Below are positions 9,957 through 56,694 of a stretch of DNA of 64,000 bases, piece after piece. The notes under the pieces are model-generated. The model saw only the letters and a program-made list of their open reading frames with translations, was not told the origin of the DNA and ran no database searches. The stretch lies in assembly GCA_947447955.1 (NCBI GenBank), contig CANFLS010000012.1, positions 2,946 to 66,945 of the forward strand, given 5' to 3'. Source of the DNA: Flavobacteriales bacterium. Lineage in GTDB: Bacteria; Bacteroidota; Bacteroidia; NS11-12g; UBA955. Every line of letters starts with the position of its first letter. The stretch's first letter is position 1. The translations under genes were made by a program, and so were the position numbers.

Positions 9957-9978
9957 AGCAGCTGAACTATTCAGCTGC
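9957..9978 (+). terminator. Rho-independent terminator after GH16
   Basis: aaaaagcagctgaactattcagctgcttttttg: a 10-bp perfect stem (agcagctgaa / ttcagctgct) followed by a T-run. Confidence 0.65.
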
Positions 9979-9982
9979 TTTT

Positions 9983-14497: not shown

Positions 14498-14555
14498 CTT
14501 GCCATTTTAAATCATTTCTTTTTCTTTTGTGGAAGAAAATCTATAAAAAATATAA

Positions 14556-14592
14556 TTATTGTACTTTTTACAATAATTAATTTTTATATTTG
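14556..14592 (+). promoter_or_regulatory. Candidate Bacteroidetes sigma-A promoter for the 14.6-22.2 kb operon
   Basis: TTG at about 14559 and TATATTTG (the TAnnTTTG -7 motif) at 14585-14592, about 10 nt upstream of the ATG at 14603. Confidence 0.3.
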
Positions 14593-14602
14593 TTTTATCA
14601 CT

Positions 14603-28373: not shown

Positions 28374-28400
28374 AATTAGAGTGCAAAGATAAACAAAAAA

Positions 28401-28449
28401 GGTTAGACGGATTAGACAGATTAGACAGATTAGACGGATTAGACAGATT
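28401..28449 (+). repeat. GATTAGACR 9-bp tandem repeat x5
   Basis: ggttagacg gattagaca gattagaca gattagacg gattagaca seen directly. Confidence 0.9.
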
Positions 28450-28480
28450 TTTGGGTTTTTGAAAATTAAACAGGCGCAGC

Positions 28481-28578
28481 CGTAAACAGCGAAGCGTCAA
28501 CAGCATAGCGTAAACTACCGAAGGTGTAAACCGCGAAGCGTAAACTTGCGAAGCAATCTAAACGCACGAAGTGCCTCA
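28481..28578 (+). repeat. degenerate 14-16-bp GCGAAGCGTAAAC-type module run
   Basis: cgtaaacagcgaagcgtcaacagcatagcgtaaactaccgaaggtgtaaaccgcgaagcgtaaacttgcgaagcaatctaaacgcacgaagtgcctcat. Related modules recur at 31.2, 34.9, 36.2, 38.9, 39.7 and 56.5 kb. Confidence 0.8.
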
Positions 28579-28582
28579 TTAG

Positions 28583-28667
28583 TTTGTTTTTTTATCATTT
28601 TAAGAGTTTGATTGGTTTGTATTTTTATCATTTTAAATGTTTTATTGGTTTGTATTTTTATCATTTT
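28583..28667 (+). repeat. about 30-bp direct repeat x2.5 (ttGattggtttgtatttttatcatttt)
   Basis: Near-identical copies at 28607-28634 and 28641-28667, plus a partial copy at 28583-28601. A related segment occurs at 34943-34968. Confidence 0.75.
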
Positions 28668-28678
28668 CATTATATTTG
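28649..28678 (+). promoter_or_regulatory. Candidate promoter for the AAA ATPase gene (-33 TTTG / -7 TATATTTG)
   Basis: TTTG at 28649-28652. TATATTTG at 28671-28678 is a perfect TAnnTTTG, spaced 18 nt from the TTTG and 22 nt before the ATG at 28700. Confidence 0.4.
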
Positions 28679-28699
28679 TATCATAATTAAATACTTACA

Positions 28700-30040
28700 A
28701 TGTACATTCAAAGAACAATTGATACAGATCTTATACTTTGGAAAAATGCAGAACAGCGTAAACCTCTTTTAATTAGAGGAGCAAGACAAGTTGGCAAATC
28801 AACTGCTGTAAGAAATTTAGCAAAGGATTTTAAGTCCTTCATAGAAATCAATTTTGACGAAGAACCGCTTTTAAGAAACCTTTTTGAGAATATTAAATCG
28901 ATTGAAGAATTATTAGAACAACTCGCAATCATCTATCAAACTCCTATAATTGAGGGAGAAACACTAATTTTTCTTGATGAAATTCAAGCCTGCCTAACAG
29001 CAATTTCATTATTGAGATATTTTTATGAAAAAAAACCATATATCCATATCATTGCCGCTGGGTCACTTTTGGAATTTGCATTAACCGAATTGCCGTCTTT
29101 TGGCGTAGGTAGAATTCGATCTATCTTTATGTATCCATTGTCTTTCAATGAGTTTCTCATAGCAATGAACGAATCTCAATTGCTAAAATTATTAGAAAAA
29201 TCAGATAGCCAAAACCCCGTAAGTCCCATACTACATGAAAAATTGAAGCTCTATTTAAAGAAATTTTTTATTATTGGAGGGATGCCAGAAGCTGTGAACG
29301 CCTATGTGCAAAGGAAAGATTTAATTGAAGTTCAAAGAATTTTAGACGATTTAGTTATTTCAATTCAAGCAGACTTTAGTAAATACAATAAAAGAATCTC
29401 TGTTCATCGAATCCAATCAGTTTTTGAGAATCTGATTCAACAAGTTGGTTCCAAATTCAAATATTCAAGTCACTACAGCGAATTAAATGGAATACAAGTG
29501 AAACAGGTGGTTGATTTATTGGAATTGGCGGGATTGGTACATTCTGTTACTCACTCCTCTTGTAACGGAATTCCATTGGGTGCAGAATCAAATATGAAAA
29601 AACGCAAATTTCTCATTTTCGATACTGGAATTTTCCAAAGAATCTTAGGGTTAGATGTTTCATCTCTCCTATTAAATAATGAATACCAAGTTATTAATAA
29701 GGGAAACATTGCAGAGTTATTCATTGGGCTCGAATTAATAAAAACAAATTCGCCATATGAAAAATCGCCTTTATATTATTGGCATAGAGAGTCAAAAAGT
29801 AGTCAAGCTGAAGTTGATTATGTAATACAAAAGGGCGAACAAATCATTCCCATTGAAGTAAAGTCAGGAACAAAGGGAACAATGCAAAGTTTACATATTT
29901 TCATGGCAGAAAAATCTATAAATGTAGGTGTAAGATGTTCATTAGAGAATTTCGGCACAATTAACAATATAAAAATTCTGCCTTTGTATGCGATTAGTCA
30001 ATTAAGAATGGATTATCCCGAAAGCTTTCGGGAGGATTAG
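28700..30040 (+). CDS. AAA-family ATPase with DUF4143-type C-terminal domain (COG1373-like)
   Basis: Walker A LLIRGARQVGKST. Walker B LIFLDEIQ. About 440-aa architecture typical of this family. The last 10 codons (…MDYPESFRED*) are encoded by the palindromic repeat element. Confidence 0.7.
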   Translation: MYIQRTIDTDLILWKNAEQRKPLLIRGARQVGKSTAVRNLAKDFKSFIEINFDEEPLLRNLFENIKSIEELLEQLAIIYQTPIIEGETLIFLDEIQACLTAISLLRYFYEKKPYIHIIAAGSLLEFALTELPSFGVGRIRSIFMYPLSFNEFLIAMNESQLLKLLEKSDSQNPVSPILHEKLKLYLKKFFIIGGMPEAVNAYVQRKDLIEVQRILDDLVISIQADFSKYNKRISVHRIQSVFENLIQQVGSKFKYSSHYSELNGIQVKQVVDLLELAGLVHSVTHSSCNGIPLGAESNMKKRKFLIFDTGIFQRILGLDVSSLLLNNEYQVINKGNIAELFIGLELIKTNSPYEKSPLYYWHRESKSSQAEVDYVIQKGEQIIPIEVKSGTKGTMQSLHIFMAEKSINVGVRCSLENFGTINNIKILPLYAISQLRMDYPESFRED

Positions 30041-30043
30041 ACG
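30011..30043 (+). repeat. Palindromic dispersed element copy 1 (GGATTA-TCCCGAAAGCTTTCGGGA-GGATTAGAC) inside the ATPase 3' end
   Basis: 18-bp perfect palindrome at 30016-30033. Other copies are at 30146-30163, 38939-38956 and 40388-40405. Confidence 0.85.
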
Positions 30044-30181
30044 GATTAGACGGGTTAGACAGATTGGGTTTAGATGCGTAAACGCGTTTAGATGGCTTCG
30101 CCGTTTAGAAGACCTAAAGGTAGTTTAGACGGATTAGACGGATTATCCCGATAGCTATCGGGAGGGTTAGACAGATTGGGT
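30036..30181 (+). repeat. Mosaic repeat block (GATTAGACR units, tttagatgcgtaaacgcgtttagatgg, palindromic element copy 2 at 30141-30173)
   Basis: gattagacggattagacgggttagacagattgggtttagatgcgtaaacgcgtttagatgg...ggattagacggattatcccgatagctatcgggagggttagacagattgggtttag. Confidence 0.85.
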
Positions 30182-30700
30182 TTAGTTTTTGAAAAAATAC
30201 TCTTTTGTTTCCCAAAATTTGACAGTATTGTAATTCAGTTTGTGGCCCAATTTATTTTGATTGATTGGCTTACACTTTTTCAAAACAAATTTGAGACATT
30301 CATTTTCAAATTCTGAGTACATCCAACCGATTATTATCGTTTGTTTTTTTTTGTTATAATATCCCGTAGGAAGAATGAACGCAGAATCTAATTTACATTT
30401 TTTAGTAATCAACCCAATATCATAAATTGTATCGTTATCGGAATATCCTTTTATTATGGTTAAAACTAAACTATCTTTCTCAAGATAGCTTCCTGTTGAG
30501 CACAATGAACGAAAGTGAACGGATGACTTAATCACTTTTGAATCTATTATTTTGTTCACTATATCACCTTTTAAATCTTGGGGTTCCGATAATTTATCTT
30601 CCCAATTTTGAGCAAAAGAATTTACTGGGAAAAAAAGCACCAGGAAAATGATGGATATTAACTTTGACATAGTATTTAATTGGGGAACATTTTCTGTCAT
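30182..30700 (-). CDS. hypothetical secreted protein (probable start about 30670, MSKLISIIF...)
   Basis: Signal peptide ...FPVNSFAQ. AT-rich. No recognisable domain. Confidence 0.4.
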   Translation of the reverse strand: MTENVPQLNTMSKLISIIFLVLFFPVNSFAQNWEDKLSEPQDLKGDIVNKIIDSKVIKSSVHFRSLCSTGSYLEKDSLVLTIIKGYSDNDTIYDIGLITKKCKLDSAFILPTGYYNKKKQTIIIGWMYSEFENECLKFVLKKCKPINQNKLGHKLNYNTVKFWETKEYFFKN

Positions 30701-30783
30701 CGTTACAAATCTAATTCAACAATGCATTGTTAACGTTGACCCATTCTGCTAAAGCAGTTTACTAATTGTTTTTTCTCGCGGGG

Positions 30784-30978
30784 TTAAGACCCCATACCAT
30801 CTCTAAAAATGATTGCCAAACTACTAAAATAAAGCAATAGGGAAAGTAGAAATGCTAACACTAACCCTATTATTATTCTTTCGGCTTTCTTATAACTGCT
30901 ATACTTGAATACCAAAGGAACAATTAACAACGGTGTTGTGAACATCACGAACCATAATATTTGACCAAGTATATGCAT
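30784..30978 (-). CDS. small hypothetical 2-TM membrane protein (64 aa)
   Basis: Two hydrophobic helices. Clean start and stop. Low confidence that it is expressed. Confidence 0.3.
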   Translation of the reverse strand: MHILGQILWFVMFTTPLLIVPLVFKYSSYKKAERIIIGLVLAFLLSLLLYFSSLAIIFRDGMGS

Positions 30979-31084
30979 AATTTACCACCAATCACCATCT
31001 AAACTATTTCTATTCTTATTGTAGAATTGGAACCCTTTTTAAATTCACTCATAAACTATTAGATTATCACCATAAGGCGCCCCC

Positions 31085-31127
31085 ATTTCTTGATATGTAA
31101 GTGACATAATTAGAGTGTAAAGATAAA
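31085..31127 (+). other. About 43-bp duplicate of the alaS start codon, first 6-7 codons and -7 promoter region (direct repeat of 28351-28393)
   Basis: atttcttgaTatgtaagtgacataattagagtgTaaagataaa versus atttcttgaGatgtaagtgacataattagagtgCaaagataaa at the native alaS start. Confidence 0.85.
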
Positions 31128-31146
31128 TTAAAAGTTAATTAGAAAG

Positions 31147-31316
31147 TTTGTAAGAGTTTATAGAAGTTTATGAGCGTTTATAAAGGTTGGCTGGGCAAAA
31201 AAAATAAACAGCGAAGCGTCAACTACCGGAGGTGTAAACCGCCAAAGGCGTCAACGAGCGAAGCTCTTCTATACGCACGAAATGCCCAAAACCGGCGAAG
31301 CCCTAAACATTTGAAG
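31147..31316 (+). repeat. Composite repeat element: 4 x 10-bp GTTTATAARR-like units, GGCTGGG-A-run, then GCGAAGCGTCAAC-type modules
   Basis: An about 80-bp core (gtttataaaggttggctgggcaaaaaaaataaacagcgaagcgtcaactaccggaggtgtaaaccgccaaaggcgtcaac) is nearly identical to 36196-36280. Confidence 0.85.
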
Positions 31317-31381
31317 TTTATTTTATATAAATTAATTGGCTTGATTATCATAAATTCAGACATCTCTGTTTTTTAGCTTAG

Positions 31382-31915
31382 CTATTTTTGAGGGACAATA
31401 GACTGTTTTTTCTCATTTATAAAATTTACAAACTGATTAAATCTTTCATTATCTATATTAAATGCAAAAATTTGCAAGGAAATTAAAATTTTATTATAAT
31501 TTCCTACAGAATAAAAATCCAAACTGCCATTATAATTTAAATTTTCGAAATTTCCGGTTGAATTAACCATAATTAATTCAAATCCATCAAACTTCAATTT
31601 AACTTGTTCAACTCCAAAAACAACATATTTTTCATCAAAAAAATGACCTTTTTCTATTTGAATATCCTCCTTAAATTCTAATTTTAAGAGCTTACAAAAA
31701 CCTGTGTTTACATAATTTTTGTATGGAATTATCAATAATAGAAAACTAAAAATAGCCGAATTAATTATCGCAATTATTTTGAAAAAAATTGCCAAATCAA
31801 AAGGACTAGAAGAGTAAATTATAAATGATATTATTGTCAAAACTATCGAACATGGACAAATTATTAAAACAGCCCATAGACTAACCTGGATTTTATTAAT
31901 CTTAATAAATCGCAT
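31382..31915 (-). CDS. hypothetical membrane protein (3 N-terminal TM helices plus soluble C-terminal domain)
   Basis: 177-aa ORF. Very AT-rich. No recognisable motif. Confidence 0.35.
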   Translation of the reverse strand: MRFIKINKIQVSLWAVLIICPCSIVLTIISFIIYSSSPFDLAIFFKIIAIINSAIFSFLLLIIPYKNYVNTGFCKLLKLEFKEDIQIEKGHFFDEKYVVFGVEQVKLKFDGFELIMVNSTGNFENLNYNGSLDFYSVGNYNKILISLQIFAFNIDNERFNQFVNFINEKKQSIVPQK

Positions 31916-32027
31916 AATTTAAATTACAAACATTTCTCATACAGCCTTTCAAATGTTGAAAGTCTAATTTTTATGCATTTTATCATCACCGGAAATGAGA
32001 AATAATTGAACACGAAGCAAATACCCG

Positions 32028-32636
32028 TTAAAGACCTTCAGCGAAAATTTCTTGCTTTAACTGAAAACTGGAGCATTGACGAACTTGAGCATAATTTGAA
32101 TCGACAAATACAATATCTAAAAGAATATTATTGAGATAATATCTCTTCGCAGCAAATAACTCAATGTATTTTTTGAAATCCACGTTGAGTACGTTTAAGT
32201 GAGGTATATCTTCGAAAATTTTACTTTCAATCAAACCTTCATAAATCAACGAATCTTTGGTGTTAAGCTTATTTATGATTGATTCTTTAGTATTTTCCAT
32301 TATCGGACTTAATGTAAAACTCATTAGGATTTTCACTTTGGGTTGTGGCTTTTTGTATACCATTGTATCAAAAACCTTACCATACAAGCTTGAAAATCGC
32401 ACACTTAAATTGAACGATGTAGGTGAAATCAACTTATAGTGCCCTACCGTATTATCTTTAAAATTTAGAGTATCAAAATTACTGAACTTCATTAAAATTG
32501 AATCAATTTCAATAGGATAAGCAATAAATTTAGACACGGGAACTTGGGTTTTAGAAATTTGTGCCGTCGCAGTAAATGACAAAAGTCCAATCAATAAAGT
32601 TAAAACAATTATCTTTTTCATTTTTTTAATGTACAA
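32028..32636 (-). CDS. hypothetical secreted protein
   Basis: Signal peptide (LSFTATAQ). 202 aa. No recognisable motif. Confidence 0.4.
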   Translation of the reverse strand: MYIKKMKKIIVLTLLIGLLSFTATAQISKTQVPVSKFIAYPIEIDSILMKFSNFDTLNFKDNTVGHYKLISPTSFNLSVRFSSLYGKVFDTMVYKKPQPKVKILMSFTLSPIMENTKESIINKLNTKDSLIYEGLIESKIFEDIPHLNVLNVDFKKYIELFAAKRYYLNNILLDIVFVDSNYAQVRQCSSFQLKQEIFAEGL

Positions 32637-32738
32637 TGTTGTAAGTGGAAATAATCAGAATTATGTGACTCGACCCAAACAGAGGAGGTATTGATATTGT
32701 TATTATTGTTCATTTTCAAAAGTACAAATTCCGTCACT

Positions 32739-33347
32739 TTACTCAGGCAAATTCTTAATGGTTTCCTTTAACCCTTCGAAAAAATCAACATCAACGCCCT
32801 TCTTTTCCTGCAATAACTCGATTTCTTTTATGACTATTTCGACATTGATATACCTTGCTTTTGTAAAAAACAAATCGGCATTCGCTTCTTTATCAGAAGG
32901 ATGTTCTAAAATATAAGACTCTATTTCCGTCACAACTTCATTAAAACAACTATCCCTTCTATGCGTGTTACCTTCAACTTCAAAAGCCAGTGCTTTGAAA
33001 GTTTTTAAATACAAGTTCTTTTTATACGACTTAGAAAAGTCGTTGATGCTTAATAAATTAACCACCCCATATGCTTTTTTATAATCATGCAATAACATAA
33101 ATGCTGTTAATTTTAATTCGGTAAGTTTGATTTTATATTCTGAACAAATTGACGAATTTTCGTCAGTGAATTTTATTAACTGATTCAAACAACTATCATT
33201 TTTTGTTACATAATATTCATTTATTTTATTATTAGCCTGATTATAAAGAGTTTTACAATCATTGATACTAATCATTTTAGGCTGACCATTGCAAGTAAAA
33301 TTCAATAACACTAAAACGAAAAAACTTAATCTTTGTATAACTTTCAT
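32739..33347 (-). CDS. hypothetical secreted/lipoprotein, candidate polymorphic-toxin immunity protein
   Basis: Signal/lipobox-like N-terminus (VLVLLNFTCNGQ). Its start codon lies 8 bp after the stop of the RHS-core remnant. Confidence 0.35.
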   Translation of the reverse strand: MKVIQRLSFFVLVLLNFTCNGQPKMISINDCKTLYNQANNKINEYYVTKNDSCLNQLIKFTDENSSICSEYKIKLTELKLTAFMLLHDYKKAYGVVNLLSINDFSKSYKKNLYLKTFKALAFEVEGNTHRRDSCFNEVVTEIESYILEHPSDKEANADLFFTKARYINVEIVIKEIELLQEKKGVDVDFFEGLKETIKNLPE

Positions 33348-33355
33348 TGTTTCAC

Positions 33356-33580
33356 CTATTGTAAATGTCCAACTTTGTTTAAATATGGATTATTTCTCAC
33401 TGCATTGTATGGTGTTAAGCTCTTTCTTTCGTCTGTTTTCGGATCCACATTCCACCTTCTTCCTAATCTACCATCATACTCCCAAAATGTGGCGGTATAT
33501 GTTTCGTTGTTGTATACTTCTTTGTCTTTTTCTTGCGTGTTAAATCCAAACCTAAACCCGCTTCCAGCGCTGAAACTTCG
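33356..33580 (-). pseudogene. Remnant of an RHS/YD-repeat core C-terminus (no start codon, in-frame stop upstream)
   Basis: Own translation of the minus strand: SFSAGSGFRFGFNTQEKDKEVYNNETYTATFWEYDGRLGRRWNVDPKTDERKSLTPYNAVRNNPYLNKVGHLQ*. It matches the RHS core end motif (…YDxxxGRxxxxDP…PYxYxxNNP…) but stops before the usual DPxG cleavage site and toxin tip. Confidence 0.55.
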
Positions 33581-33672
33581 GTTTTTTATGAACTACCAAA
33601 AGTAGATGGGTTGTGGAGGTAGTTTAAGGGATAGTTGAACACGATTAGCGCTTTTTACTTTGTAATTTGAGA

Positions 33673-34374
33673 TCAATAAATTATATGCTTAAACTTGCCT
33701 TTGTATAACTCCAAGTATTTGGGCTTAAAACAATAGTGAACTTTACATTTATTCTTGCGCTTTTTATTTTTAAAGTATAATTCAAATTTATAAATGTAGG
33801 TGTAAATTTCATTAGTTTTCTTTGTGAAATTATTATATTGAGTACCGGATTCTTTGAAATTTAAATCACTTGCATCGCAAGGAAAGGTTTTAGAGTTGTA
33901 ATAATAACCAATTCGAATTGACATTGATTTAGAAGATAAGTATAAAGCTTTAGTTTTGAATAAAAAATAGTTTTTAATAAAATTAAAATCCCCAATTACT
34001 AAAGAATCAATATGATCCATCTTATTTGCATAATAAATTTTATCATATTCATTCTTATTCGCAGTTACTTCTTTGATTGTCAATGTATCCGTTTCGGGGC
34101 AGTATCTTACTTCAATTTTAGTTTGATTTTCGGCTGTTTCTAAAACAATTTTATCATTGTAATATTTAATAATATTTGAGTATTCTGCTGCACTTTGAAT
34201 GGATAACTTTTTCTTTTTTTCAGCCGGATCTTCATATCTAATGATTAAACAACTATCGGTTTTTTCCATAAACAAACGTTGAGGGGTCATAGTATCGTAG
34301 GGTTTTACAAAAACTTGACCTACAGATAAATTCAATTTGATGCTGAGAAATATGAATAATGTTATTTTTTTCAT
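33673..34374 (-). CDS. hypothetical secreted protein
   Basis: Signal peptide (…LSVGQ). 233 aa. Lys/Tyr/Asn-rich. No motif. Confidence 0.4.
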   Translation of the reverse strand: MKKITLFIFLSIKLNLSVGQVFVKPYDTMTPQRLFMEKTDSCLIIRYEDPAEKKKKLSIQSAAEYSNIIKYYNDKIVLETAENQTKIEVRYCPETDTLTIKEVTANKNEYDKIYYANKMDHIDSLVIGDFNFIKNYFLFKTKALYLSSKSMSIRIGYYYNSKTFPCDASDLNFKESGTQYNNFTKKTNEIYTYIYKFELYFKNKKRKNKCKVHYCFKPKYLELYKGKFKHIIY

Positions 34375-34580
34375 TATCTTTTTCTTGCAAATGCACGTAT
34401 TGATTGAGTTGTATATTCAATTGCTCTATAATTCAAACAACCACAGGTGCCTTGCTTCCAAAGCTTCGAAACCAATTGCATACTATCATCTTCGGCTTTG
34501 ATGTTCAATTTTGAATTACCGAAATATTCTATGTTATTAATCATTTTAATTACACTCAATGATTGTTTTGTATTTTTCAC
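34374..34580 (-). CDS. small hypothetical ORF (68 aa) overlapping the start of the previous gene, possibly a toxin-tip fragment
   Basis: ATGA stop/start overlap with 33673-34374. No motif. Confidence 0.2.
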   Translation of the reverse strand: MKNTKQSLSVIKMINNIEYFGNSKLNIKAEDDSMQLVSKLWKQGTCGCLNYRAIEYTTQSIRAFARKR

Positions 34581-34713
34581 TACTTACACAATCGTTATAC
34601 ACAGCTTCGCCACTTCAGTTACATTAAAAATATCGCTGATTCGGCGGTCGTAAATCAAAGTTATTATTTTATTTAGAATTCACAAACTAATTTTAATAGC
34701 CGTAAATATTTTG

Positions 34714-34968
34714 AGTTTAGATGCGTAAACACCTAAAGGTTGATTAGACAGATTAGACGGATTAGACGGATTAGACGGATTAGACGGATTAGACGGATTA
34801 GACGGATTAGACGGATTGGGTTTAGAGAAACTAAAGGTAGTTTAGATGTTGTTTTCTAATTCCAATAGAAAATCTAAACGCATGGCAATGCTTCTAAACC
34901 CTAAACGAGCGAAGCTCTTCTCAACGCACGAAGTGCCTCATCGATTTGTATTTTTATCATTTGATATC
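34714..34968 (+). repeat. Mosaic repeat block with a GATTAGACR x8 array (34742-34813)
   Basis: tttagatgcgtaaacacctaaaggtt-gattagaca-(gattagacg)x7-gattgggtttag...ctaaaggtagtttagatg...ctaaacgcatggcaatg...ctaaacgagcgaagctcttctcaacgcacgaagtgcctcat...ttgtatttttatcattt. Confidence 0.9.
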
Positions 34969-34983
34969 TTTTCTATAGGCAAT

Positions 34984-35054
34984 GAGCCGATTAAATTTAA
35001 AAATCGGCTCATTTTTTGCGTATATTTGAGCCGATTAAACCCACAAATCGGCTC
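34984..35054 (+). promoter_or_regulatory. Twin near-identical stem-loops/palindromes (GAGCCGATT-N9-AATCGGCTC) x2 immediately upstream of fic
   Basis: gagccgattaaatttaaaaatcggctc at 34984-35010 and gagccgattaaacccacaaatcggctc at 35028-35054. The second ends 1-2 nt before the fic ATG. Confidence 0.6.
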
Positions 35055-35055
35055 A

Positions 35056-36162
35056 ATGAAATACAATTGGCAACAAATTGACTGGCCCAACTTCAGCTTT
35101 AACACAGCGAAAATAGATCACTTATTACTTGATTTTATTCGCAATTCTGGCAAACTAGAGGGCGCTTTAGAAACACTAACTGAAAATAATCAATCAGAAA
35201 CTATCATTGAACTATTGGTAATTGAAGCAATTAAAACATCCGAAATTGAAGGTGAATATTTAAGTAGAAAAGATGTGGCTTCTTCCATCCGGAAAAATTT
35301 GGGCTTACTTAAAACCACTGAGAATATAAAAGATCAAAAAGCCCGAGGTATTGCTGAATTGTTGATAATGGTCCGGAATAGTTATTACAAACCATTGGCA
35401 AAAAAAGAATTACTCAATTGGCATAAATCGTTAATGAGTCATGACCCGACAATTCAGTCAGGTGAATGGCGCGAACATGAAGAACCGATGCAAATTATTT
35501 CAGGCGCATTAGGAAAAGAAAAAATTCATTTTGAAGCGCCACCGTCAAAAAATGTCCCTCAAGAAATGGAACAATTCTTTCAATGGTTTAATGGTACAGC
35601 GCCGAATCAACCCAATGAAATCATACATGCACCAATTCGGGCTGCAATTGCACATCTTTATTTTGAAAGTATTCATCCGTTTGAAGATGGAAATGGACGT
35701 ATTGGTAGAGCACTTGCAGAAAAAGCTTTGGCACAAACTTTAGGATATAATCCACTAATTAGTTTATCGTCAACAATAGAACTAAATAAAAAGGAATACT
35801 ATTATTATTTGGAAAGAGGTCAACGAAAAAACGAAATTACGGAATGGATAGAATATTTCGTAAACACAATATTGCATGCTCAAGAATTTACACAAAAACT
35901 CATTCATTTCACCATTCAAAAAACACAAATCTTCGATACTTTTTCAACACAACTCAACGAGGCGCAATTGAAGGTGGTAAAGCGTATTTTAGAGCAAGGT
36001 CATGAGGGATTTATTGGTGGTATGAATGCGGAAAAGTATATGCGCATATCAAAGGTTTCAAAAGCAACAGCTACCAGACATTTACACCAACTCGTTGAAA
36101 TTGGTATCTTTCAAATTGAAGGGAAAGGAAGAGCCACGAGGTATCGTATTAATGTTAATTAG
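35056..36162 (+). CDS. Fic/DOC-family protein (DUF4172 N-terminus, class II TxxxEG inhibitory motif, C-terminal wHTH)
   Basis: MKYNWQQIDWPNF start. TSEIEGE. Fic motif HPFEDGNGRIGR. C-terminal HTH (KATATRHLHQLVEIGIF). The ORF-track N-terminal extension back to 34846 is a translation of repeats and is rejected. Confidence 0.8.
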   Translation: MKYNWQQIDWPNFSFNTAKIDHLLLDFIRNSGKLEGALETLTENNQSETIIELLVIEAIKTSEIEGEYLSRKDVASSIRKNLGLLKTTENIKDQKARGIAELLIMVRNSYYKPLAKKELLNWHKSLMSHDPTIQSGEWREHEEPMQIISGALGKEKIHFEAPPSKNVPQEMEQFFQWFNGTAPNQPNEIIHAPIRAAIAHLYFESIHPFEDGNGRIGRALAEKALAQTLGYNPLISLSSTIELNKKEYYYYLERGQRKNEITEWIEYFVNTILHAQEFTQKLIHFTIQKTQIFDTFSTQLNEAQLKVVKRILEQGHEGFIGGMNAEKYMRISKVSKATATRHLHQLVEIGIFQIEGKGRATRYRINVN

Positions 36163-36164
36163 AA

Positions 36165-36322
36165 GGTTTATAAGCATTTATAAAAGTTTATGTGCGTTTA
36201 TAAAGTTTGGCTGGGTAAAAAAACAAACAGCGAAGCGTCAACTACCGGAGGTGTAAACCGCCAAAGGCGTCAACCGCCAAAGGCGTCAACTACCGCAGGT
36301 GTAAACCCACCGTAGGTGTAAA
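36165..36322 (+). repeat. Composite repeat element (4 x 10-bp GTTTATAARR units, GGCTGGG-A-run, 16-bp GYGTMAAC-N-CCRNAG units x about 6)
   Basis: ggtttataagcatttataaaagtttatgtgcgtttataaagtttggctgggtaaaaaaacaaacagcgaagcgtcaactaccggaggtgtaaaccgccaaaggcgtcaaccgccaaaggcgtcaactaccgcaggtgtaaacccaccgtaggtgtaaac. Confidence 0.85.
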
Positions 36323-36354
36323 CAAAAAGGACGCCCTAAAGCGTCCAATTTTGT
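36323..36354 (+). terminator. Hairpin terminator between the convergent fic and pckA genes
   Basis: aaaaaggacgccctaaagcgtccaattttgtt: stem GGACGC/GCGTCC, flanked by an A-run and a T-run. Could act bidirectionally. Confidence 0.5.
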
Positions 36355-36375
36355 TATTGTTGTTATTGTTGTTGT

Positions 36376-37965
36376 TTAAGCTGTAGCCATTCTTGGAGCA
36401 GCGGCCTTGATTTCGTCGCTAGATCCATCGGCAAATTTTTGGAAATTGTCGTTGAACAATTTAGCCAATTTCTGACACTGTGCGTCGTATTCAGCACCGT
36501 CAGCCCAAGTATTTCTTGGATGTAACAATTCTGAAGGAACGTTAGGACAAGCATCAGGCATTGCAAATCCGAACACAGGGTGATTGGTGAAAGAGCCATC
36601 CAATTGTCCCTCCAAAGCCGCAGTAATCATGGCACGTGTGTAAGACAATTTCATTCTGCTACCTACACCGTAAGCACCACCTGACCAACCAGTGTTGATC
36701 AACCAAACGTTGATATTTGGGTGTGCAGATAATTTCTCTCCCAACATTTCTGCATATTTCGCAGGATGCAATGGCAAGAAAACTTGTCCAAAGCAAGCAG
36801 AGAAAGTAGCTTGAGGTTCAGTAACTCCCGCTTCAGTACCCGCAACTTTCGCAGTGTAACCAGAAATAAATTGATACATTGCTTGGCCTGGAGTTAACTT
36901 AGAAATTGGAGGCAAAACACCAAAAGCATCTGCCGTTAAGAAGAAAATATTCTTAGGAGCATCGCCAATAGATGGTTCTGCAATATTGTCGATATAGTCA
37001 ATAGGATATGCAACACGGGTATTTTCGGTTACTGAAATATTGTCGTAATCAGGGGTATTTGTTCCCTCAAAGAAACGAACGTTTTCAACCAAAGCACCAG
37101 GCTTAATTGCATTCCAAATTTGAGGTTCTTTTTCTTCAGTTAAGTTTACGCATTTTGCGTAACAACCACCTTCAAAATTGAAAACAGTAGAATCAGACCA
37201 TCCGTGTTCATCGTCACCGATTAATTTACGGTTAGGATCTGCACTCAAAGTAGTTTTACCGGTACCGCTCAATCCGAAGAATACAGCAGTGTCGTTGTCC
37301 TTACCAATATTTGCTGAACAATGCATGCTCAATACACCTTTTTCTTGTGGAAGGATGTAATTCAACACACTAAAGATACCTTTCTTAATTTCACCAGTGT
37401 AACCACTACCACCAATTAAGATGATTTTCTTAGTTAAATCTACAATGGTAAAGTTATGTTGGCGCGTACCGTCAATTGCAGGATCAGCCATAAATGAAGG
37501 AGCCGCAATAATTACCCATTCAGAAGGTTGGGTAGCGATTTCAGTTGCTGTAGGACGTAAAAACAAGTTCTTAGCGAACAAATTTTGGTACGCACTTTCA
37601 GTAACTACTTGAATATTTAAACGATAAGCTGGATCAGCACAAGCATATGCATGACGAACAAAGATTTCTCTTCCTTCTAAATGCGCTACTACCCTGTTTA
37701 ACAACGCATCGAATTTTTCAGATTCAAAGGGCTGATTTACAGTACCCCACCATGCGGTGTCGGCTGTTTTTGCATCTTTTACCAAGAATTTGTCTTTAGG
37801 ACTTCTTCCAGTAAACTCACCCGTATCGGCAGCCAATGCGCCTTTATCTGTGATTTGACCTTCATTTCTCTCGAGAGCTTTCTCGATAAGCTCATCGGTG
37901 GTTAAGTTTTCAAAAACTTGCTTTGCATGCGATTTTATGTTCGCAATCAATGCCTCATTACTCAT
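36376..37965 (-). CDS. pckA: phosphoenolpyruvate carboxykinase (ATP)
   Basis: About 530 aa. GEFTGRSPKDKF near the N-terminus. The kinase P-loop GLSGTGKTTLS. Start taken at MSNEALIANI (37965) rather than the ORF-track extension to 38004. Confidence 0.95.
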   Translation of the reverse strand: MSNEALIANIKSHAKQVFENLTTDELIEKALERNEGQITDKGALAADTGEFTGRSPKDKFLVKDAKTADTAWWGTVNQPFESEKFDALLNRVVAHLEGREIFVRHAYACADPAYRLNIQVVTESAYQNLFAKNLFLRPTATEIATQPSEWVIIAAPSFMADPAIDGTRQHNFTIVDLTKKIILIGGSGYTGEIKKGIFSVLNYILPQEKGVLSMHCSANIGKDNDTAVFFGLSGTGKTTLSADPNRKLIGDDEHGWSDSTVFNFEGGCYAKCVNLTEEKEPQIWNAIKPGALVENVRFFEGTNTPDYDNISVTENTRVAYPIDYIDNIAEPSIGDAPKNIFFLTADAFGVLPPISKLTPGQAMYQFISGYTAKVAGTEAGVTEPQATFSACFGQVFLPLHPAKYAEMLGEKLSAHPNINVWLINTGWSGGAYGVGSRMKLSYTRAMITAALEGQLDGSFTNHPVFGFAMPDACPNVPSELLHPRNTWADGAEYDAQCQKLAKLFNDNFQKFADGSSDEIKAAAPRMATA

Positions 37966-38093
37966 ACAGTTTATTTTCGTAAATTTGTACTGCAAAGTTA
38001 CCAAAACGTTAATCGCATTGGTTAATTTTTATCTTTTTTTTAGTAAACGGATTTACGCACATTATATTTACACAATTTAATTACTATCGAGCA

Positions 38094-38846
38094 ATGACAA
38101 ACACAACTAAATATATTATAAGCAAACACTTAACCCAATTTCGCATTTGCGGAAGTGTAAAACTGACACTATTACTTTTGTGCATTATTTTTTTGGGGGA
38201 AAATAACCTTAAGTCCCAAAATTACGCTGTAAAACCCACTTACGACAAGATTTTGTATGGCAGTTTAATTACAATAAGTGCTACAGATTTATGGCTTACA
38301 AACAAGTTAAATGCCACACCCCATCATTGGACGGTAAACCCTTTTGACAAACTTGCAGTGAATCAATTGAACACGAATTTGGCACATACAGCAGATGCCA
38401 CTGCCGGAGCCACCATGTTACTCAGTTCTGCACTCACATTGGCTCTCCCTCAAAATGAACGCTGGGGGTATATCAATAACCTCGCTCAAAACATTTGGAT
38501 AACTGGAAACACAGTACAATTGGTAAAAATACTGGTACAAAGAAGCAGACCATACACCAATGCGACAGGATATCAATTTACCGGCAACAAAGACGACAAT
38601 TATTCATTTTTTAGCGGACATAGCGCCATTACCGCAGCAGCGGCAACCACAGCATTGATGTATGCTTTGAGAAACAACCAAACCAATACTGTAAAATATT
38701 TGGCCTATGGCGCCGGCGTTGCATCATTGGCAACCGCAACCTTACGCATATTGGCTGGAAAACATTATCCGTCAGACGTACTCACCGGGTTATTGATAGG
38801 AACTGGCATTTCAATTTTCAACACTCAATGGCACTCCGTGCGTTGA
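38094..38846 (+). CDS. PAP2-family phosphatase (membrane)
   Basis: PAP2 motifs KILVQRSRP, SFFSGHS, GKHYPSDVLTG. Confidence 0.6.
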   Translation: MTNTTKYIISKHLTQFRICGSVKLTLLLLCIIFLGENNLKSQNYAVKPTYDKILYGSLITISATDLWLTNKLNATPHHWTVNPFDKLAVNQLNTNLAHTADATAGATMLLSSALTLALPQNERWGYINNLAQNIWITGNTVQLVKILVQRSRPYTNATGYQFTGNKDDNYSFFSGHSAITAAAATTALMYALRNNQTNTVKYLAYGAGVASLATATLRILAGKHYPSDVLTGLLIGTGISIFNTQWHSVR

Positions 38847-38847
38847 C

Positions 38848-39058
38848 GGCTTCGCCTGTTGACACCTACGGTAGTTTACACCTTCGGTAGTTTAATTTAG
38901 GCACTCAACTCAGATATCTGTCTAATCCGTCTAACCCTCCCGATTGCTATCGGGATAACCTGTCTAATCCCGAAAAGTTTACGCTTCGCTGTTTAATTAA
39001 ACCTAAAATCTATCAACAAAAAATCTGTCTAATCTGTCTAACCCGTCTAATCTGTCTA
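38848..39058 (-). repeat. Mosaic repeat block in reverse orientation (GTCTAATC units, palindromic element copy 3 at 38928-38965)
   Basis: ...ggtagtttacaccttcggtagttt...atatctgtctaatccgtctaaccctcccgattgctatcgggataacctgtctaatccc...tctgtctaatctgtctaacccgtctaatctgtctaatccc. The last unit supplies the msrA stop codon. Confidence 0.85.
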
Positions 39059-39715
39059 ATCCCTTTTATACTTTTTCATATACTCCTCAAACTTCTTCAC
39101 CTTTTCCCCCACCACATAAATGCAGTACGGTTGCTCAGGATTGTTTTCAAAGTAGTTTTGGTGATAGTCTTCGGCGTCGGAATATTTTTCTACGGGTAGA
39201 ATTTCTGTTACAATTTTACCGTCCCACAGTTTGGCATCTTCTGCAGCTTTTAAGCTGTATAAAGCAAGTTCCTTTTGTTCGTTGTTGCGATAATAAATGC
39301 CACTTCGATATTGGGTTCCTTCGTCGTTGCCTTGTTTATTCAAAGTTGTAGGATTATGAATACGCCAGAAAACGGTTAGAATTTCTGCAAATGAGGTTTT
39401 GGTAGTATCGAACATGATTTTCACCACTTCCACACAACCTGTATAGCCTGAGCAGACTTCGCGGTAGGTAGGATTGGCAATTTTACCATTGCTGTATCCA
39501 CTCACCACATTCAATACTCCTGGCAAACGTCTGTAAACGGCATCTAGACACCAAAAGCAACCACCACCCAACACGCAAGTGTCAACTTTGGTTGGATCAA
39601 TTTCATTTGAATTTTCCATGTTTTTTTTGTTTGTGCTTTCTACCAAAGAGGAATTCTTACTCCCACAAGATAAAAAACCGATTGAAATGATAAATATAAA
39701 TATGTTTTTTAACAT
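39056..39715 (-). CDS. msrA: peptide-methionine (S)-S-oxide reductase MsrA (lipoprotein form)
   Basis: Lipobox (IGFLSCGSK). GGGCFWCLDAVY catalytic motif. Confidence 0.9.
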   Translation of the reverse strand: MLKNIFIFIISIGFLSCGSKNSSLVESTNKKNMENSNEIDPTKVDTCVLGGGCFWCLDAVYRRLPGVLNVVSGYSNGKIANPTYREVCSGYTGCVEVVKIMFDTTKTSFAEILTVFWRIHNPTTLNKQGNDEGTQYRSGIYYRNNEQKELALYSLKAAEDAKLWDGKIVTEILPVEKYSDAEDYHQNYFENNPEQPYCIYVVGEKVKKFEEYMKKYKRD

Positions 39716-39726
39716 CCTTTTGTTGG

Positions 39727-39876
39727 TTTAGAGGCACTTCGTGCGTTTAGGGGAGCTTCGCACGTTTAGGGTTTAGAGTGCCATCAATATTCAGAAGCAA
39801 TTGCTAAACGACCGGCAGGTCTTCTAAACGTCGGAGACATCTAAACGCGTTTACGCTACTAAACTCACTTTTCTGT
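39727..39876 (-). repeat. Mosaic repeat block (reverse-orientation copies of ctaaacgcacgaagtgcctc, cgtttagaagacc and gcgtaaacgcgtttagatg modules)
   Basis: gaggcacttcgtgcgtttagg...ggtcttctaaacg...catctaaacgcgtttacgc...ctgtctaaccc. Confidence 0.8.
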
Positions 39877-40203
39877 CTAACCCTTAGTCCGATACCCCTT
39901 AGCAGCCAAAAACGCTTTCACCTTATCCAACGTATCTCCTTGAATAATGATGTCGCCTTCTTTGCTGGTTCCGCCCACACCGCAATGGTTTTTGAGGCTT
40001 TTTTCTAACTGTTTTAAATCGTCAGATTTGCCAATAAATTCTTTAATCACAATACAAGGTTTGCCATTGCGAACTTCTCTTCTCACATATAATTTCTGTT
40101 GCGACGGCTCCAAAGTGTCTTGTTCCTCGCTCTCAGTGTCATACTGATAATCCGGATTTGTACTATAAACAATCCCCGATTTGTTTTTGTTTTTGTTGCT
40201 CAT
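39877..40203 (-). CDS. yciH: SUI1/YciH-family translation initiation factor-like protein
   Basis: 108 aa. An N-terminal Lys/Asn-rich tail, then a SUI1-like core (…YVRREVRNGKPCIVIKEF…GVGGTSKEGDIIIQGD). Confidence 0.55.
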   Translation of the reverse strand: MSNKNKNKSGIVYSTNPDYQYDTESEEQDTLEPSQQKLYVRREVRNGKPCIVIKEFIGKSDDLKQLEKSLKNHCGVGGTSKEGDIIIQGDTLDKVKAFLAAKGYRTKG

Positions 40204-40212
40204 ACTTTTTTT

Positions 40213-40333
40213 GGGTTAGAAGGGTTAGACCGATTAGACGGATTAGACAGATTGATTGTGATTAGACAGATAAATTTGAATAGGCAGATAAATATTTAAA
40301 AAATCTAAATCGATTTTAGATAAACGATAAACA
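40213..40333 (+). repeat. Mosaic repeat block (GGTTAGA/GATTAGACR units and others)
   Basis: gggttagaagggttagaccgattagacggattagacagattgattgtgattagacagataaatttgaataggcagataaat... Confidence 0.8.
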
Positions 40334-40375
40334 TATTTCATGAATTTTAACTTTTACTCTTGCAATTGAAAAAAA

Positions 40376-40432
40376 TCTGTCTAATCTTCCCGATAGCTAT
40401 CGGGATAACCCTTCTAATCTGTCTAATCTCTG
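40376..40432 (-). repeat. Palindromic dispersed element copy 4 flanked by GTCTAATC units; supplies the SDR stop codon
   Basis: atctgtctaatcttcccgatagctatcgggataacccttctaatctgtctaatc. Palindrome at 40388-40405. Confidence 0.85.
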
Positions 40433-41172
40433 TAAATCACTCCTGCCGCAGGTTGTGCCGTTGGCATAATTACTAAGTCGTTAATGTTTACGTGGGCTGG
40501 TCTTGAAACTGCGTAATAAACAGCATCGGCAATATCATCGGCAATGAGGTTTTCAAATCCCTCATAAACCTTTTTAGCCCTGTCTTTGTCGCCATCAAAT
40601 CGTACTTCGCTGAATTCGGTTTCAACAGCACCAGGATGAATCCCTGTTACCTTCACTTTGAACTCAGCCAATTCAATGCGCATGGCTCTGGTTAAAGCGT
40701 CAACGGCATGTTTGGTAGCACAATATACATTGCCATTCATATAAACATCTTTCCCTGCTATAGATCCAATATTCACAATATGACCACTTTTTTTATCCTT
40801 CATCCAATTGGCAACAACCTTTGAAACATAAAGTAATCCTTTGATATTGGTATCAATCATGGTATCCCAATGCGTTGTATTTCCATTGAAGAACTGTCCC
40901 AAGCCCCAAGCCAAACCGGCATTATTTACCAAAACATCAATATTTTTCCATTCTGCTGGCAATGAATTCAATGCGAGATTAACTTCTTCGTCACTTCGTA
41001 CGTCAAAACACAAGGTATACACTTTTTCAGAACCTATCTCTTCTTGAAACTTCAACAAACGCTCTGCCCTTCTTCCCGTTACGATTACTTTGTAATTGTT
41101 TTCCAATAACAACTTTGCAGTTGCCAATCCAATTCCACTGGTACCACCAGTTATTAATGCTATTTTACTCAT
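40423..41172 (-). CDS. SDR-family NAD(P)-dependent oxidoreductase
   Basis: MSKIALITGGTSGIGLA Rossmann motif. NNAG. Catalytic YCATKHAV (YxxxK). The ORF-track upstream extension to 41289 uses a non-ATG start and is rejected. Confidence 0.8.
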   Translation of the reverse strand: MSKIALITGGTSGIGLATAKLLLENNYKVIVTGRRAERLLKFQEEIGSEKVYTLCFDVRSDEEVNLALNSLPAEWKNIDVLVNNAGLAWGLGQFFNGNTTHWDTMIDTNIKGLLYVSKVVANWMKDKKSGHIVNIGSIAGKDVYMNGNVYCATKHAVDALTRAMRIELAEFKVKVTGIHPGAVETEFSEVRFDGDKDRAKKVYEGFENLIADDIADAVYYAVSRPAHVNINDLVIMPTAQPAAGVIYRD

Positions 41173-56379: not shown

Positions 56380-56390
56380 GGGAATTCTAA

Positions 56391-56503
56391 GGTTTATAAG
56401 GGTTTATGAAGGTTTATAAAAGTTTATAAGGGTTAAAACTAAACGCATGGCAATTCTATGGTTTATAAGTGTTTATGAAGGTTTATAAAAGTTTATAAGG
56501 GTT
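56391..56503 (+). repeat. 10-bp-phased GTTTATAARR blocks: a 44-bp unit (4 x 10 bp) present twice with a 69-bp period
   Basis: ggtttataagggtttatgaaggtttataaaagtttataagggtt at 56391-56434, and ggtttataagtgtttatgaaggtttataaaagtttataagggtt at 56460-56503. They are separated by aaaactaaacgcatggcaattctat. Confidence 0.9.
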
Positions 56504-56523
56504 AACAAAGTAAGTGAATAAAA

Positions 56524-56677: not shown

Positions 56678-56694
56678 TCAACAATAAAATAAAT

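Follow-up and report, generated by a model that had tools for sequence, protein, structure and literature searches.

The stretch of DNA analysed here (the window, 64 kb) carries arrays of short repeats in the gaps between its genes, in the region 28.4–40.4 kb and again at 56.38–56.69 kb. We interpret these blocks as lineage-specific mosaic intergenic repeats, similar to repetitive extragenic palindromic (REP) sequences and bacterial interspersed mosaic elements (BIMEs), which have no enzyme of their own and evolve by slippage and recombination, and we give this reading a probability of about 55%. The window has a low GC content (31–42%) and encodes GldB, PorP/SprF, SusC/SusD and proteins with type IX secretion system (T9SS) tails, indicating that it comes from a Flavobacteriales-type genome. 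It was compared with fragments of genomes and metagenomes, and the mechanism is deduced from comparative end states. Sister contigs are metagenome contigs that encode an identical SUI1 protein; their genes are 94–100% identical to those of the window at the nucleotide level. The lineage has populations in Jiricka/Rimov and Lake Zurich, and the assemblies GCA_947371205.1 and GCA_947449975.1 show no difference from the window over the sequence they share with it.

The arrays are built from four true unit types. The 9-mer is RGRTTAGAC (which can also be framed as GRTTAGACR) and the 10-mer is GTTTATAARR. The mini-hairpin units are 12–17 nucleotides (nt) long, with stems of 2–5 bp, GNA loops and either GTMAAC or TCTAAAC as spacer, and the palindrome is an 18-nt unit, TCCCGAWAGCTWTCGGGA. 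Module counts were tested against dinucleotide shuffles of the window. GRTTAGAC is found 32 times, compared to 1.76 expected and a largest value of 6 in the shuffles. All 32 matches are in gaps, within 28401–40428 and spread over seven gaps, and the rest of the 64 kb has none; DNA uptake sequences (DUS/USS) were rejected on these figures. GNAGNNGTMAAC occurs 12 times (0.51 expected) and GTTTATRARR 11 times (2.89 expected), with nine of the matches to each lying within gaps. Tandem arrays were called with Tandem Repeats Finder, which gave 8.4 copies of GATTAGACG at 34742–34817 and 11.5 copies of a 14-mer at 56524–56684. There are three perfect copies of the palindrome, at 30016, 30146 and 40388, and one copy with a single mismatch, at 38938. 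The palindrome is always flanked by RGRTTA and RGRTTAGAC in this lineage, and its centre changes in a compensatory manner, to AAAGCTTT or ATAGCTAT. Within the window the hairpin units and the palindrome are confined to gaps, entering open reading frames (ORFs) only at gene ends. All of the modules listed in an earlier, sequence-only reading of this DNA were found where it had placed them. It did not note that the 14–17-mers are mini-hairpins, that the arrays have a strict polarity, that four stop codons fall within 9-mers or that the alaS start region is copied at 31085–31133.

The mini-hairpins have about 14 different stems, each of which retains complementarity, in other words they covary. 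The stems include GC/GC, AC/GT, ACC/GGT, GGC/GCC, GCC/GGC and GTC/GAC, together with GACC/GGTC, GCAC/GTGC, CGCC/GGCG, GAGC/GCTC, GCAT/ATGC and TTGC/GCAA. Half of the 36 distinct units with 3-bp geometry (18) show perfect complementarity, compared to a mean of 4.0 and a maximum of 11 when partners are shuffled (1000 shuffles). The loop is GNA in 21 of the 29 distinct perfect units (GAA, GCA, GTA or GGA) and AAA or ATA in the rest, and in the class with 4-bp stems the loops GGCA, GGTA and GTTA are seen. An asymmetry between G·T and A·C mismatches would distinguish selection on RNA from selection on DNA; there are only seven mismatches, which is too few to discriminate. According to a 2026 review, GNA is the sole class of trinucleotide loop that gives the extraordinarily stable DNA mini-hairpin d(GCGNAGC) (PMC13037366). 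The units here have the same features, namely a C-G closing pair, a GNA or GNNA loop and a short G+C-rich stem, and are predicted to fold in this way.

The units are arranged with a strict polarity. We designate GRTTAGAC, GTTTAGA, GTTKAC-hairpin and GTTTATRA units as '>' and their reverse complements as '<'. The G/T-rich '>' units are placed to the left of their complements. The window and related loci together yielded 57 distinct clusters, of which 42 contain both orientations and are symmetric at their ends. Every one of these 42 starts with '>' and ends with '<', and the reverse order does not occur. The nominal probability of this (p = 4.5e-13) overstates the independence of the clusters, because it ignores kinship and counts alleles of the same gaps. 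The convergent polarity is kept at convergent, divergent and tandem gene pairs alike, and the strand that carries the GNA loops is always the 3′ half of each strand. In contig L026, seven composites are iterated head to tail with the same polarity and with no genes between them, from which it follows that the unit is the convergent composite rather than a block of genes. A telomere-like arrangement, in which gene blocks are capped by outward-facing G-rich repeats, was rejected for the same reason. Clusters of REP doublets (REPINs) are likewise tandemly iterated (PMC3116915).

Only composites with like units on both sides are predicted to fold globally. The gap between the SDR and SUI1 genes, which has 9-mers on both sides, folds into a long hairpin (z = -5.9), as does the composite in the SUI1-PMSR gap, here called element G, when folded as a single strand (z = -3.4). 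Composites that pair 9-mers or 10-mers with hairpins have a global fold no better than shuffled sequences (z = +1.9, -0.1 and 0.0).

Between strains the arrays vary in unit number, their contents are swapped with breakpoints inside units, and one composite is found at several gaps. The SDR-SUI1 gap is 219 nt long in the window, where it contains 9-mers and the palindrome, and 114 nt (L007) or 157 nt (L001) in contigs where it consists of convergent GTTTATAA arrays. For the SUI1-PMSR gap the window has 161 nt, which added hairpin units extend to 207 or 294 nt elsewhere, and there are further alleles of 309 nt (9-mers, palindromes and hairpin arrays) and 318 nt (10-mers plus 17 hairpin units). 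Gap contents can thus be wholly different while the genes on either side are nearly or completely identical, and the allele breakpoints fall within 9-mers. Element G, 123–220 nt long, occurs in three gap contexts, SUI1-PMSR, PMSR-PAP2 and Fic-pckA. It occupies the PMSR-PAP2 gap of L002, L003, L032 and L033, at which the window has other modules rather than an empty site. The sister-strain comparison suggested in the sequence-only reading revealed polymorphism not only in copy number but also in gap length and module type. That reading had also offered miniature inverted-repeat transposable elements (MITEs) as an identity, which does not agree with these results: array lengths and contents vary continuously with no fixed length, there are no consistent terminal inverted repeats with target-site duplications (the flanks of element G differ, without duplication), and no empty allele was seen among the array-bearing gaps of the sister strains.

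Accessory genes are inserted, and in one case tandemly duplicated, between directly repeated composites. In the Lake Zurich metagenome-assembled genome (MAG) ZE-13may13-36 (contig L030, whose genes are 92–98% identical to the window) and in contig L035, a single composite is all that separates alaS from pckA. The window has an extra 7.9 kb at this position (28374–36162, with a GC content of 28–31% at 31–35 kb), coding for a DUF4143 AAA-ATPase, five ORFans and a DUF4172-Fic protein, and bounded by repeated composites. The five genes between the AAA-ATPase and Fic (30182–34374) are all on the - strand, have 172–233 codons, no Pfam match and a GC content of 28–31%. Two 10-mer/hairpin composites, at 31131–31255 and 36151–36274, form direct repeats that are 88–89% identical. 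Next to the first of these, the 49 nt at 31085–31133 are a 92% identical copy of 28351–28399, 2.7 kb away, comprising the alaS start codon, the first 23 coding bases and the upstream -7 box. This copy is at the joint between two parts of the insert, and appears to mark the ancestral alaS junction, resembling a scar of the recombination that built the insert. In contig L042 (346–2971) the Fic gene is tandemly duplicated, each copy being followed by a 10-mer/hairpin composite, which is the product that would be expected of unequal crossing-over between composites. In MAG Jr-16oct17-283 (L017), convergent 9-mer composites separate a nucleotidyltransferase, an Xre-RES toxin-antitoxin pair and another AAA_14 ATPase. 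The suggestion in the sequence-only reading that the repeats are specific to a hypervariable chromosomal zone is correct to the extent that 28.4–36.2 kb is an accessory insert absent from two relatives. It does not hold for the family as a whole, which also flanks the housekeeping genes pheT, rpoN and rplI at unrelated loci of other MAGs and whose palindrome occurs on Bacteroidota-like contigs from many environments.

Tandem 9-mers are much less widespread than the palindrome. A search of 185,579 species genomes for three tandem 9-mers gave 21 stretches only. The true family members are all freshwater Flavobacteriales/Bacteroidetes MAGs, namely Jr-16oct17-283 (six contigs), ZE-13may13-36 (three) and Jr-16oct17-287, and these also carry the other modules; the remaining matches are coding or unrelated. 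In L021, from a Crocinitomicaceae MAG, and in the viral contigs L044 and L045, GATTAGACG repeats encode G-L-D or collagen-like repeats, so that a census of 9-mers by pattern alone yields false positives. L021 and the triple 9-mers found in the viral scan were rejected as family members on this basis.

Of the 12 gaps between 28.4 and 40.4 kb, eight contain modules. The sequence-only reading had counted nine consecutive gaps, which is not exact: the gaps at 31916–32027, 32637–32738, 33348–33672 and 38005–38093 are free of modules, and the further array site is at 56.38–56.69 kb. The arrays are described here on the + strand except where noted. Upstream of alaS, a '>' array consisting of GGTTAGACG followed by four GATTAGACR (28396–28449) lies 28 nt from the alaS start codon, with the alaS -7 box TATCTTTG at 28384–28391 on the - strand. 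It is followed by a '<' array of about seven mini-hairpins (28467–28580; GCGAAGC, GCATAGC, ACCGAAGGT, TTGCGAAGCAA and GCACGAAGTGC) with GTMAAC or TCTAAAC spacers. Then comes a 33-nt repeat in 2.7 copies (28578–28692), which contains TTTGTATTTTTATCATTT and is a class apart from the other modules. Its last copy forms TTTG-N18-TATATTTG, a promoter-like site for the AAA-ATPase gene. TTTGTATTTTTATCATTT had been listed as a module of the family; it is instead the -33/spacer part of a Bacteroidetes-type -33/-7 promoter, present before the AAA-ATPase gene and again before Fic.

At the end of the AAA-ATPase gene is a composite made entirely of '>' units (30010–30185), in the order palindrome, 9-mers, hairpins, 9-mers, palindrome, 9-mer, GGGTTTAG. 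The palindromes are at 30016–30033 and 30146–30163, and three GTTTAGA-spaced hairpins are at 30066–30128. The composite at 31134–31310 is of '> <' type, with an array of GTTTRTAARR 10-mers, the linker GGCTGGGCAAAAAAAATAAAC and hairpin-GTMAAC units. Upstream of the Fic promoter, the '>' half (34711–34846) contains GTTTAGA hairpins, the 8.4 copies of GATTAGACG, GGGTTTAGA and CTAAAGGTAGTTTAGA, and the centre and '<' half (34847–34943) contain TCTAAAC-spaced hairpins (GCATGGCAATGC, GAGCGAAGCTC and GCACGAAGTGC). Beside it, at 34983–35055, the Fic -7 box is enclosed by a pair of hairpins that are almost the same, TGAGCCGATTAAATTTAAAAATCGGCTCA followed by T6 and then GAGCCGATTAAACCCACAAATCGGCTCA, which ends at the Fic start codon. 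The pair may control Fic as an operator or attenuator. Between Fic and pckA, a '> <' composite (36151–36325) runs from the Fic stop codon with a 10-mer array (TTAATTAG), a linker and six hairpin-GTMAAC units to the pckA terminator. The latter is a canonical hairpin with a T-run (GGACGCCCTAAAGCGTCC) at 36322–36376, immediately after the pckA stop codon and accompanied by a TTGTTATTG repeat. Neither the terminator nor the repeat differs between sister contigs, in contrast to the array beside them, which varies.

The PMSR-PAP2 gap contains a '>' array of GTTKAC-spaced hairpins (38831–38893) and a '<' half (38894–39062, - strand) with linkers, GRTTAGAC units, the imperfect palindrome (38938–38955) and one hairpin unit. 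Element G (39716–39882, - strand) consists of four GTTTAG-spaced hairpins, a 26-nt centre and three TCTAAAC-spaced hairpins. The last gap (40204–40440) has convergent 9-mer arrays at 40214–40267 (+ strand) and 40374–40440 (- strand) around a 110-nt centre, with a palindrome at 40388–40405. At the distant site, two blocks of four GTTTATRARR 10-mers are separated by one TCTAAAC-type hairpin (56380–56511). They are followed by a linker ending in AATAAAC and then by 11.5 hairpin units, which are ACGAAGT or GCGAAGC followed by GTAAAC, ATAAAC or GTCAAC, and which extend to 5 nt from the next start codon (56512–56690).

Some modules extend into the ends of genes and provide the stop codon. Four genes, those for the AAA-ATPase, PMSR, SDR and SUI1, terminate at the TAG contained in the first GRTTAGAC unit (for SUI1, within GGTTAGAC); for PMSR and SDR, in window coordinates, this is the last 9-mer of the block. 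The PAP2 stop codon is the TGA within GTTGAC, the last PAP2 residues being encoded by the first hairpin unit of 38831–38893, and the Fic stop codon is within TTAATTAG at the start of the 10-mer block. The palindrome at 30016–30033 encodes the C-terminal residues of the AAA-ATPase, ..DYPESFRED*.

How such arrays arise can be suggested from these comparisons. The hairpin units would fold in single-stranded DNA at replication forks, and the folded hairpins could promote polymerase slippage and template switching, by which units would be added or removed. Near-identical arrays at different gaps would then undergo homologous recombination or gene conversion, which would homogenise the family and reshuffle the gaps, and make them joints at which accessory genes can be gained and lost. 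Any effects on transcription, such as protection of 3′ ends or insulation, would be secondary.

Several points weigh against this explanation. Slippage and recombination are deduced from their end states and not observed. Neutral processes alone do not readily explain a polarity that is absolute (even given that the clusters include alleles of the same gaps and are not independent), nor why the units are conserved in three or more species-level MAGs and the palindrome in contigs whose GC content ranges from 30 to 48%. In every sister strain the arrays are present at the same gaps, where they could be needed. The 9-mer/hairpin composites have no significant global fold, though nearest-neighbour energies may miss the stability of GNA loops. 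Finally, a trans-acting enzyme could be encoded elsewhere in the genome, since the search covered the 64-kb window and fragments. Slippage and recombination, a trans-acting enzyme and a selected function in cis are not mutually exclusive.

It is possible, with a probability well below that of slippage and recombination, that the repeats are mobile miniature elements for which a dedicated trans-acting enzyme recognises single-stranded DNA hairpins and copies the palindrome, the composites or both to new sites. Such an enzyme might be a tyrosine transposase of HUH/RAYT-like type, or some other nuclease or recombinase. The GNA hairpins point to single-stranded DNA, which is the substrate of IS200/IS605-type enzymes, and element G is present at three non-homologous gaps. 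Further arguments come from the palindrome outside the window. The pattern TTATCCCGAWAGCTWTCGGGA was found in more than 120 metagenome contigs (a lower bound) with GC contents of 30–48%, whose names indicate a range of projects including TARA; soil, lakes, the sea and viruses are among the sources of contigs with the palindrome. The metagenome contigs are Bacteroidota-like, an assignment made for most of them from composition only, the GlyRS case described below being the one named Bacteroidota by its sources. The palindrome is frequently present in several copies per contig. TCCCGATAGCTATCGGGA is present in 46 viral contig stretches at 53 sites, with up to five copies in one 23-kb contig, against a chance expectation of about 1, a rough figure that comes from an assumed collection size. 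In other lineages the palindrome is flanked by other tandem units, also convergent, including GGTTGATTGG, GGTTAATTGG, GTTAATTAG, CACATCATCA and ATTGGAGTA, among others; in a Flavobacterium the context is '...AATCTTTTATCCCGATAGCTATCGGGAGTGGCAAAA'.

The palindrome is also found inside genes. The RNase P RNA gene of L107 has, compared to the Rfam consensus, an additional 17-nt hairpin formed by the palindrome. In protein genes it is in frame in HtpG, GlyRS, GlpD, PrmC, a GH88 protein and others, where it encodes PDSYRD(K), PESFRD or IPIAIG. GlyRS orthologues that are 95–97% identical have either a filled site, MAEGPDSYRDKIYL, or an empty one, MAED----SDKIYL, the nucleotide alleles being GCTGAGGGTCCCGATAGCTATCGGGATAAAATT and GCTGAAGATTCAGATAAAATT. 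This is a gain or loss of the palindrome between close relatives within a conserved gene, and favours an enzyme; against this, the net change is 12 nt rather than a clean 18-nt unit, and the two genes are 88% identical at the nucleotide level. The alignment of GlyRS orthologues has two more in-frame inserts at a second site, LPAAPRLERQAG and SPLTPE, which may represent further palindromic insert families in Bacteroidota genes.

At some sites the palindrome lies within another copy or within a stem, which again is what a mobile element might do. In the viral contigs L177, L199, L202, L203 and L208 it is nested in a copy of itself (for example CATCCCGATAG-TCCCGATAGCTATCGGGA-TCGGGAC), beside AATTGATAATTGATA-type tandem units, and in L191, L198 and L216 it is in the loop of terminator-like stems. 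Insertion at hairpin apices can account for only a minority of copies, however, because flanking stems of at least 5 bp were found at 9 of 49 viral sites, compared to 1 of 49 controls, and at 4 of 132 metagenome sites, compared to 2 controls. TTA as an insertion target was dropped as a rule, since 20 of 132 palindrome contexts have neither TTA nor TAA. In two viral contigs (L175, 4826–4905, and L195) the palindrome abuts a tRNA-Met-like 3′ fragment, comprising anticodon arm, T arm and acceptor strand, on which ARAGORN makes no call; the fragment may be the remnant of a phage attachment site. Insertion of the palindrome into a tRNA variable arm or D-loop (L093, L104 and L175) was also dropped, because neither ARAGORN nor Rfam calls a tRNA.

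The searches for an enzyme were negative. There is no transposase, integrase or Y1/HUH protein, RAYT included, among the proteins of the window, and a crude motif screen found no HUH/RAYT-like ORF among 1913 open frames of related loci. The 150 ORFs closest to palindromes gave 156 Pfam families, none with more than three members, so that no family recurs beside the palindrome, and there was no RAYT among the 25 commonest. The repeats also lack a GTAG or CGTC head, fixed ends and target duplication. A search of the full text of the literature gave no match for the module strings, the palindrome or the peptide PDSYRD.

About equally tentative is the idea that the arrays are cis-elements maintained by selection, acting as bidirectional insulators, terminators or protectors of mRNA ends, or as phased binding arrays for nucleoid or regulatory proteins. 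This would explain why arrays occupy the same gaps in every sister strain as well as in the approximately 95% identical MAG ZE-13may13-36, why the polarity is strict regardless of gene orientation, and why unit sequences are kept across species-level MAGs. A read-through transcript from either side would meet purine-rich units and then C-rich, G-poor units; Rho utilisation of the C-rich half was rejected because the hairpin arrays are not C-rich. Periods of 9 and 10 nt nearly match one turn of the DNA helix, the 9-mer/9-mer and element G gaps fold into the long hairpins described above, and both mRNA stabilisation and transcription termination are known functions of REPs (PMC3733652). A sequence-specific role is, however, unlikely, since 9-mer, 10-mer and hairpin types interchange at one gap. 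There are no T-runs after the hairpins, whereas pckA has its own canonical terminator beside the array, and most other gaps in the window have no modules. At gathering score, no Rfam family matches the window; relaxing the threshold to E ≤ 5 over 28.3–40.5 kb brought up nothing relevant, and at 16 palindrome loci the only matches were RNase P and tRNA. The palindrome, moreover, is also found within ORFs and RNA genes, where such a role would make no sense.

The positions of the promoters also bear on a role in cis. A perfect -7 box that is not part of an array is present for each of alaS (28384, - strand), the AAA-ATPase gene (28671) and Fic (35021), the last two reading TATATTTG, which implies that the arrays there lie between divergent promoters and are untranscribed. 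SUI1, PMSR and the ORF at 56695 have no -7 box in their upstream gaps, and for this reason the arrays at these three places are probably intercistronic RNA. The presence of arrays in both situations argues against a single role at the level of RNA.

A more speculative proposal, which we consider less likely than either of these, is that the 16–18-nt palindrome, CCCGATAGCTATCGGG, acts as a mini-insertion element that is active throughout the phylum Bacteroidota and in its phages. A mechanism targeting single-stranded DNA would place it into genes, structural RNA genes and gaps. In a gap it would seed polar tandem arrays from its own flanks, and the convergent arrays would then organise accessory-gene cassettes, as recombination joints that need no integrase.

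It is very unlikely that the composites are attC-like sites of an integron-like system, at which a site-specific recombinase inserts cassettes. Structured repeats do separate accessory cassettes (AAA-ATPase, Fic, toxin-antitoxin pairs). The integron consensus has the core GTTRRRY and inverse core RYYYAAC, to which GTTAGAC and GTCTAAC conform, in a match that was made post hoc. The order is nevertheless reversed, being GTTAGAC...GTCTAAC here and RYYYAAC...GTTRRRY in attC. The cassettes are in both orientations, housekeeping genes are flanked too, the window encodes no integrase, and the insert boundaries are long direct repeats such as are left by homologous recombination. Chance low-complexity sequence or an assembly or sequencing artefact is of negligible probability: many metagenome contigs do terminate within arrays, short-read contigs often breaking there, which makes the array length in any single assembly uncertain, but the counts are 4- to 24-fold over shuffled sequence, identical arrays occur in independent assemblies (NCBI, ENA, JGI and Logan), and the palindrome is in frame in proteins from independent sources.

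Elsewhere in the window, a cluster of polysaccharide-utilisation type (3446–17906) codes for a TonB-dependent receptor, SusD, a GH16 protein with a Calx-beta domain, a 1504-residue PKD protein with a T9SS sorting tail and a GH2-like protein, and its gaps have no repeat modules. A DUF3078 gene on the - strand contains a 21-nt tandem repeat (2573–2654; 3.9 copies, 85% matches).

REP-type repeats are well studied in Proteobacteria, and we found almost nothing on Bacteroidota, for which the units are now concrete and searchable. The arrays explain why MAGs of this freshwater lineage are fragmented at these positions, they can serve as hypervariable markers for tracking strains in lake time series, and they pinpoint the chromosomal entry sites of accessory cassettes such as Fic, AAA-ATPase and toxin-antitoxin pairs. 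Should an enzyme prove to drive their spread, they would be a new class of miniature mobile DNA.

The closest known systems are the BIMEs of E. coli and the REPINs of Pseudomonas. These too are extragenic mosaics of short palindromic units and linkers in opposed orientation and in tandem clusters, which vary between strains, have no coding capacity and are predicted to form hairpins in single-stranded DNA or mRNA (PMC2817692, PMC3116915). The assignment to REP/BIME in the sequence-only reading is justified as a resemblance, in that the arrays are non-coding mosaics of palindromes and linkers in both orientations, variable between strains and present at many loci in several species-level MAGs. 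Formal membership is another matter, because the GTAG or CGTC head is absent: the palindrome is flanked by RGRTTA and RGRTTAGAC here and by variable sequences in other lineages, and the hairpins by AAC and GTMAAC. No RAYT was found in the window, and the stems are 2–5 bp long compared to REPs of 20–40 nt. BIMEs have no counterpart of the long non-palindromic runs of 9- and 10-nt units, and their orientation alternates unit by unit rather than in convergent blocks. The host phylum is Bacteroidota rather than Proteobacteria; CGTC-tagged REPs in a few Bacteroidetes, intragenic REPs and mosaic intergenic regions in Neisseria have been listed (PMC3733652), and REP doublets and tandem REPIN clusters described (PMC3116915).

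The intergenic mosaics of Neisseria, in which dRS3 and CGTC-1 are interleaved with other repeats, are large and composed of several families, as here (PMC3733652). They differ in the sequences and sizes of their units, Neisseria is naturally transformable, and its repeats are tied to phage integrase targets, nothing comparable being shown here. The minimal mobile elements of Neisseria place different cassettes between the same conserved flanking genes according to strain, and the alaS-pckA site resembles them in cassette exchange.

The cyanobacterial short tandemly repeated repetitive (STRR) sequences and the small dispersed repeats (SDRs) of Nostoc likewise place short tandem units in intergenic gaps. 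Vioque is said to have described in 1997 STRR arrays within the RNase P RNA gene of heterocystous cyanobacteria, to which the palindrome in the RNase P RNA gene of L107 is a parallel. SDRs, reportedly described by Elhai in 2008 as elements of 21–27 nt, are said to be nested in each other, as are some copies of the palindrome. STRRs belong to another phylum and have 7-nt units (CCCCAAT etc.), compared to 9, 10 and 14–17 nt here, and neither arrays of GNA mini-hairpins nor a polarity rule have been reported for STRRs or SDRs. Rickettsia palindromic elements (RPEs) occur in frame in housekeeping protein genes and in RNA genes, adding a short peptide, as the palindrome does; they are much larger, at 100–150 bp with CGTC tags, compared to 16–18 nt and no tag here. 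Within the window the only effect of the palindrome comparable to that of RPEs or intragenic REPs is on the C-terminus of the AAA-ATPase.

A CRISPR array was rejected because the units are head to tail with no unique spacers. Integron attC sites, and the clusters of them that lack an integrase (CALINs), share structured, imperfect inverted repeats between cassettes that include toxin-antitoxin pairs, and differ in the order of their core-like sequences, whereas here cassette orientation is mixed, there is no integrase and the junctions resemble those of homologous recombination. The stable DNA mini-hairpins d(GCGNAGC) and d(GCGNNAGC) have the loop classes and C-G closing pair seen here (GAA, GCA, GTA and GGA, and some GNNA). 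In nature they are known as single sites at phage and plasmid replication origins, and the review describes no tandem arrays like those of 6–17 mini-hairpins with 6-nt spacing found here (PMC13037366). Mosaic palindromic intergenic repeats are a kind of element already known. What is new is the tandem arrays of GNA mini-hairpins, the non-palindromic 9- and 10-nt arrays, the strict convergent polarity, and a tiny palindrome that Bacteroidota-like contigs and their viruses have in common and that is also present in ORFs and in RNase P RNA.

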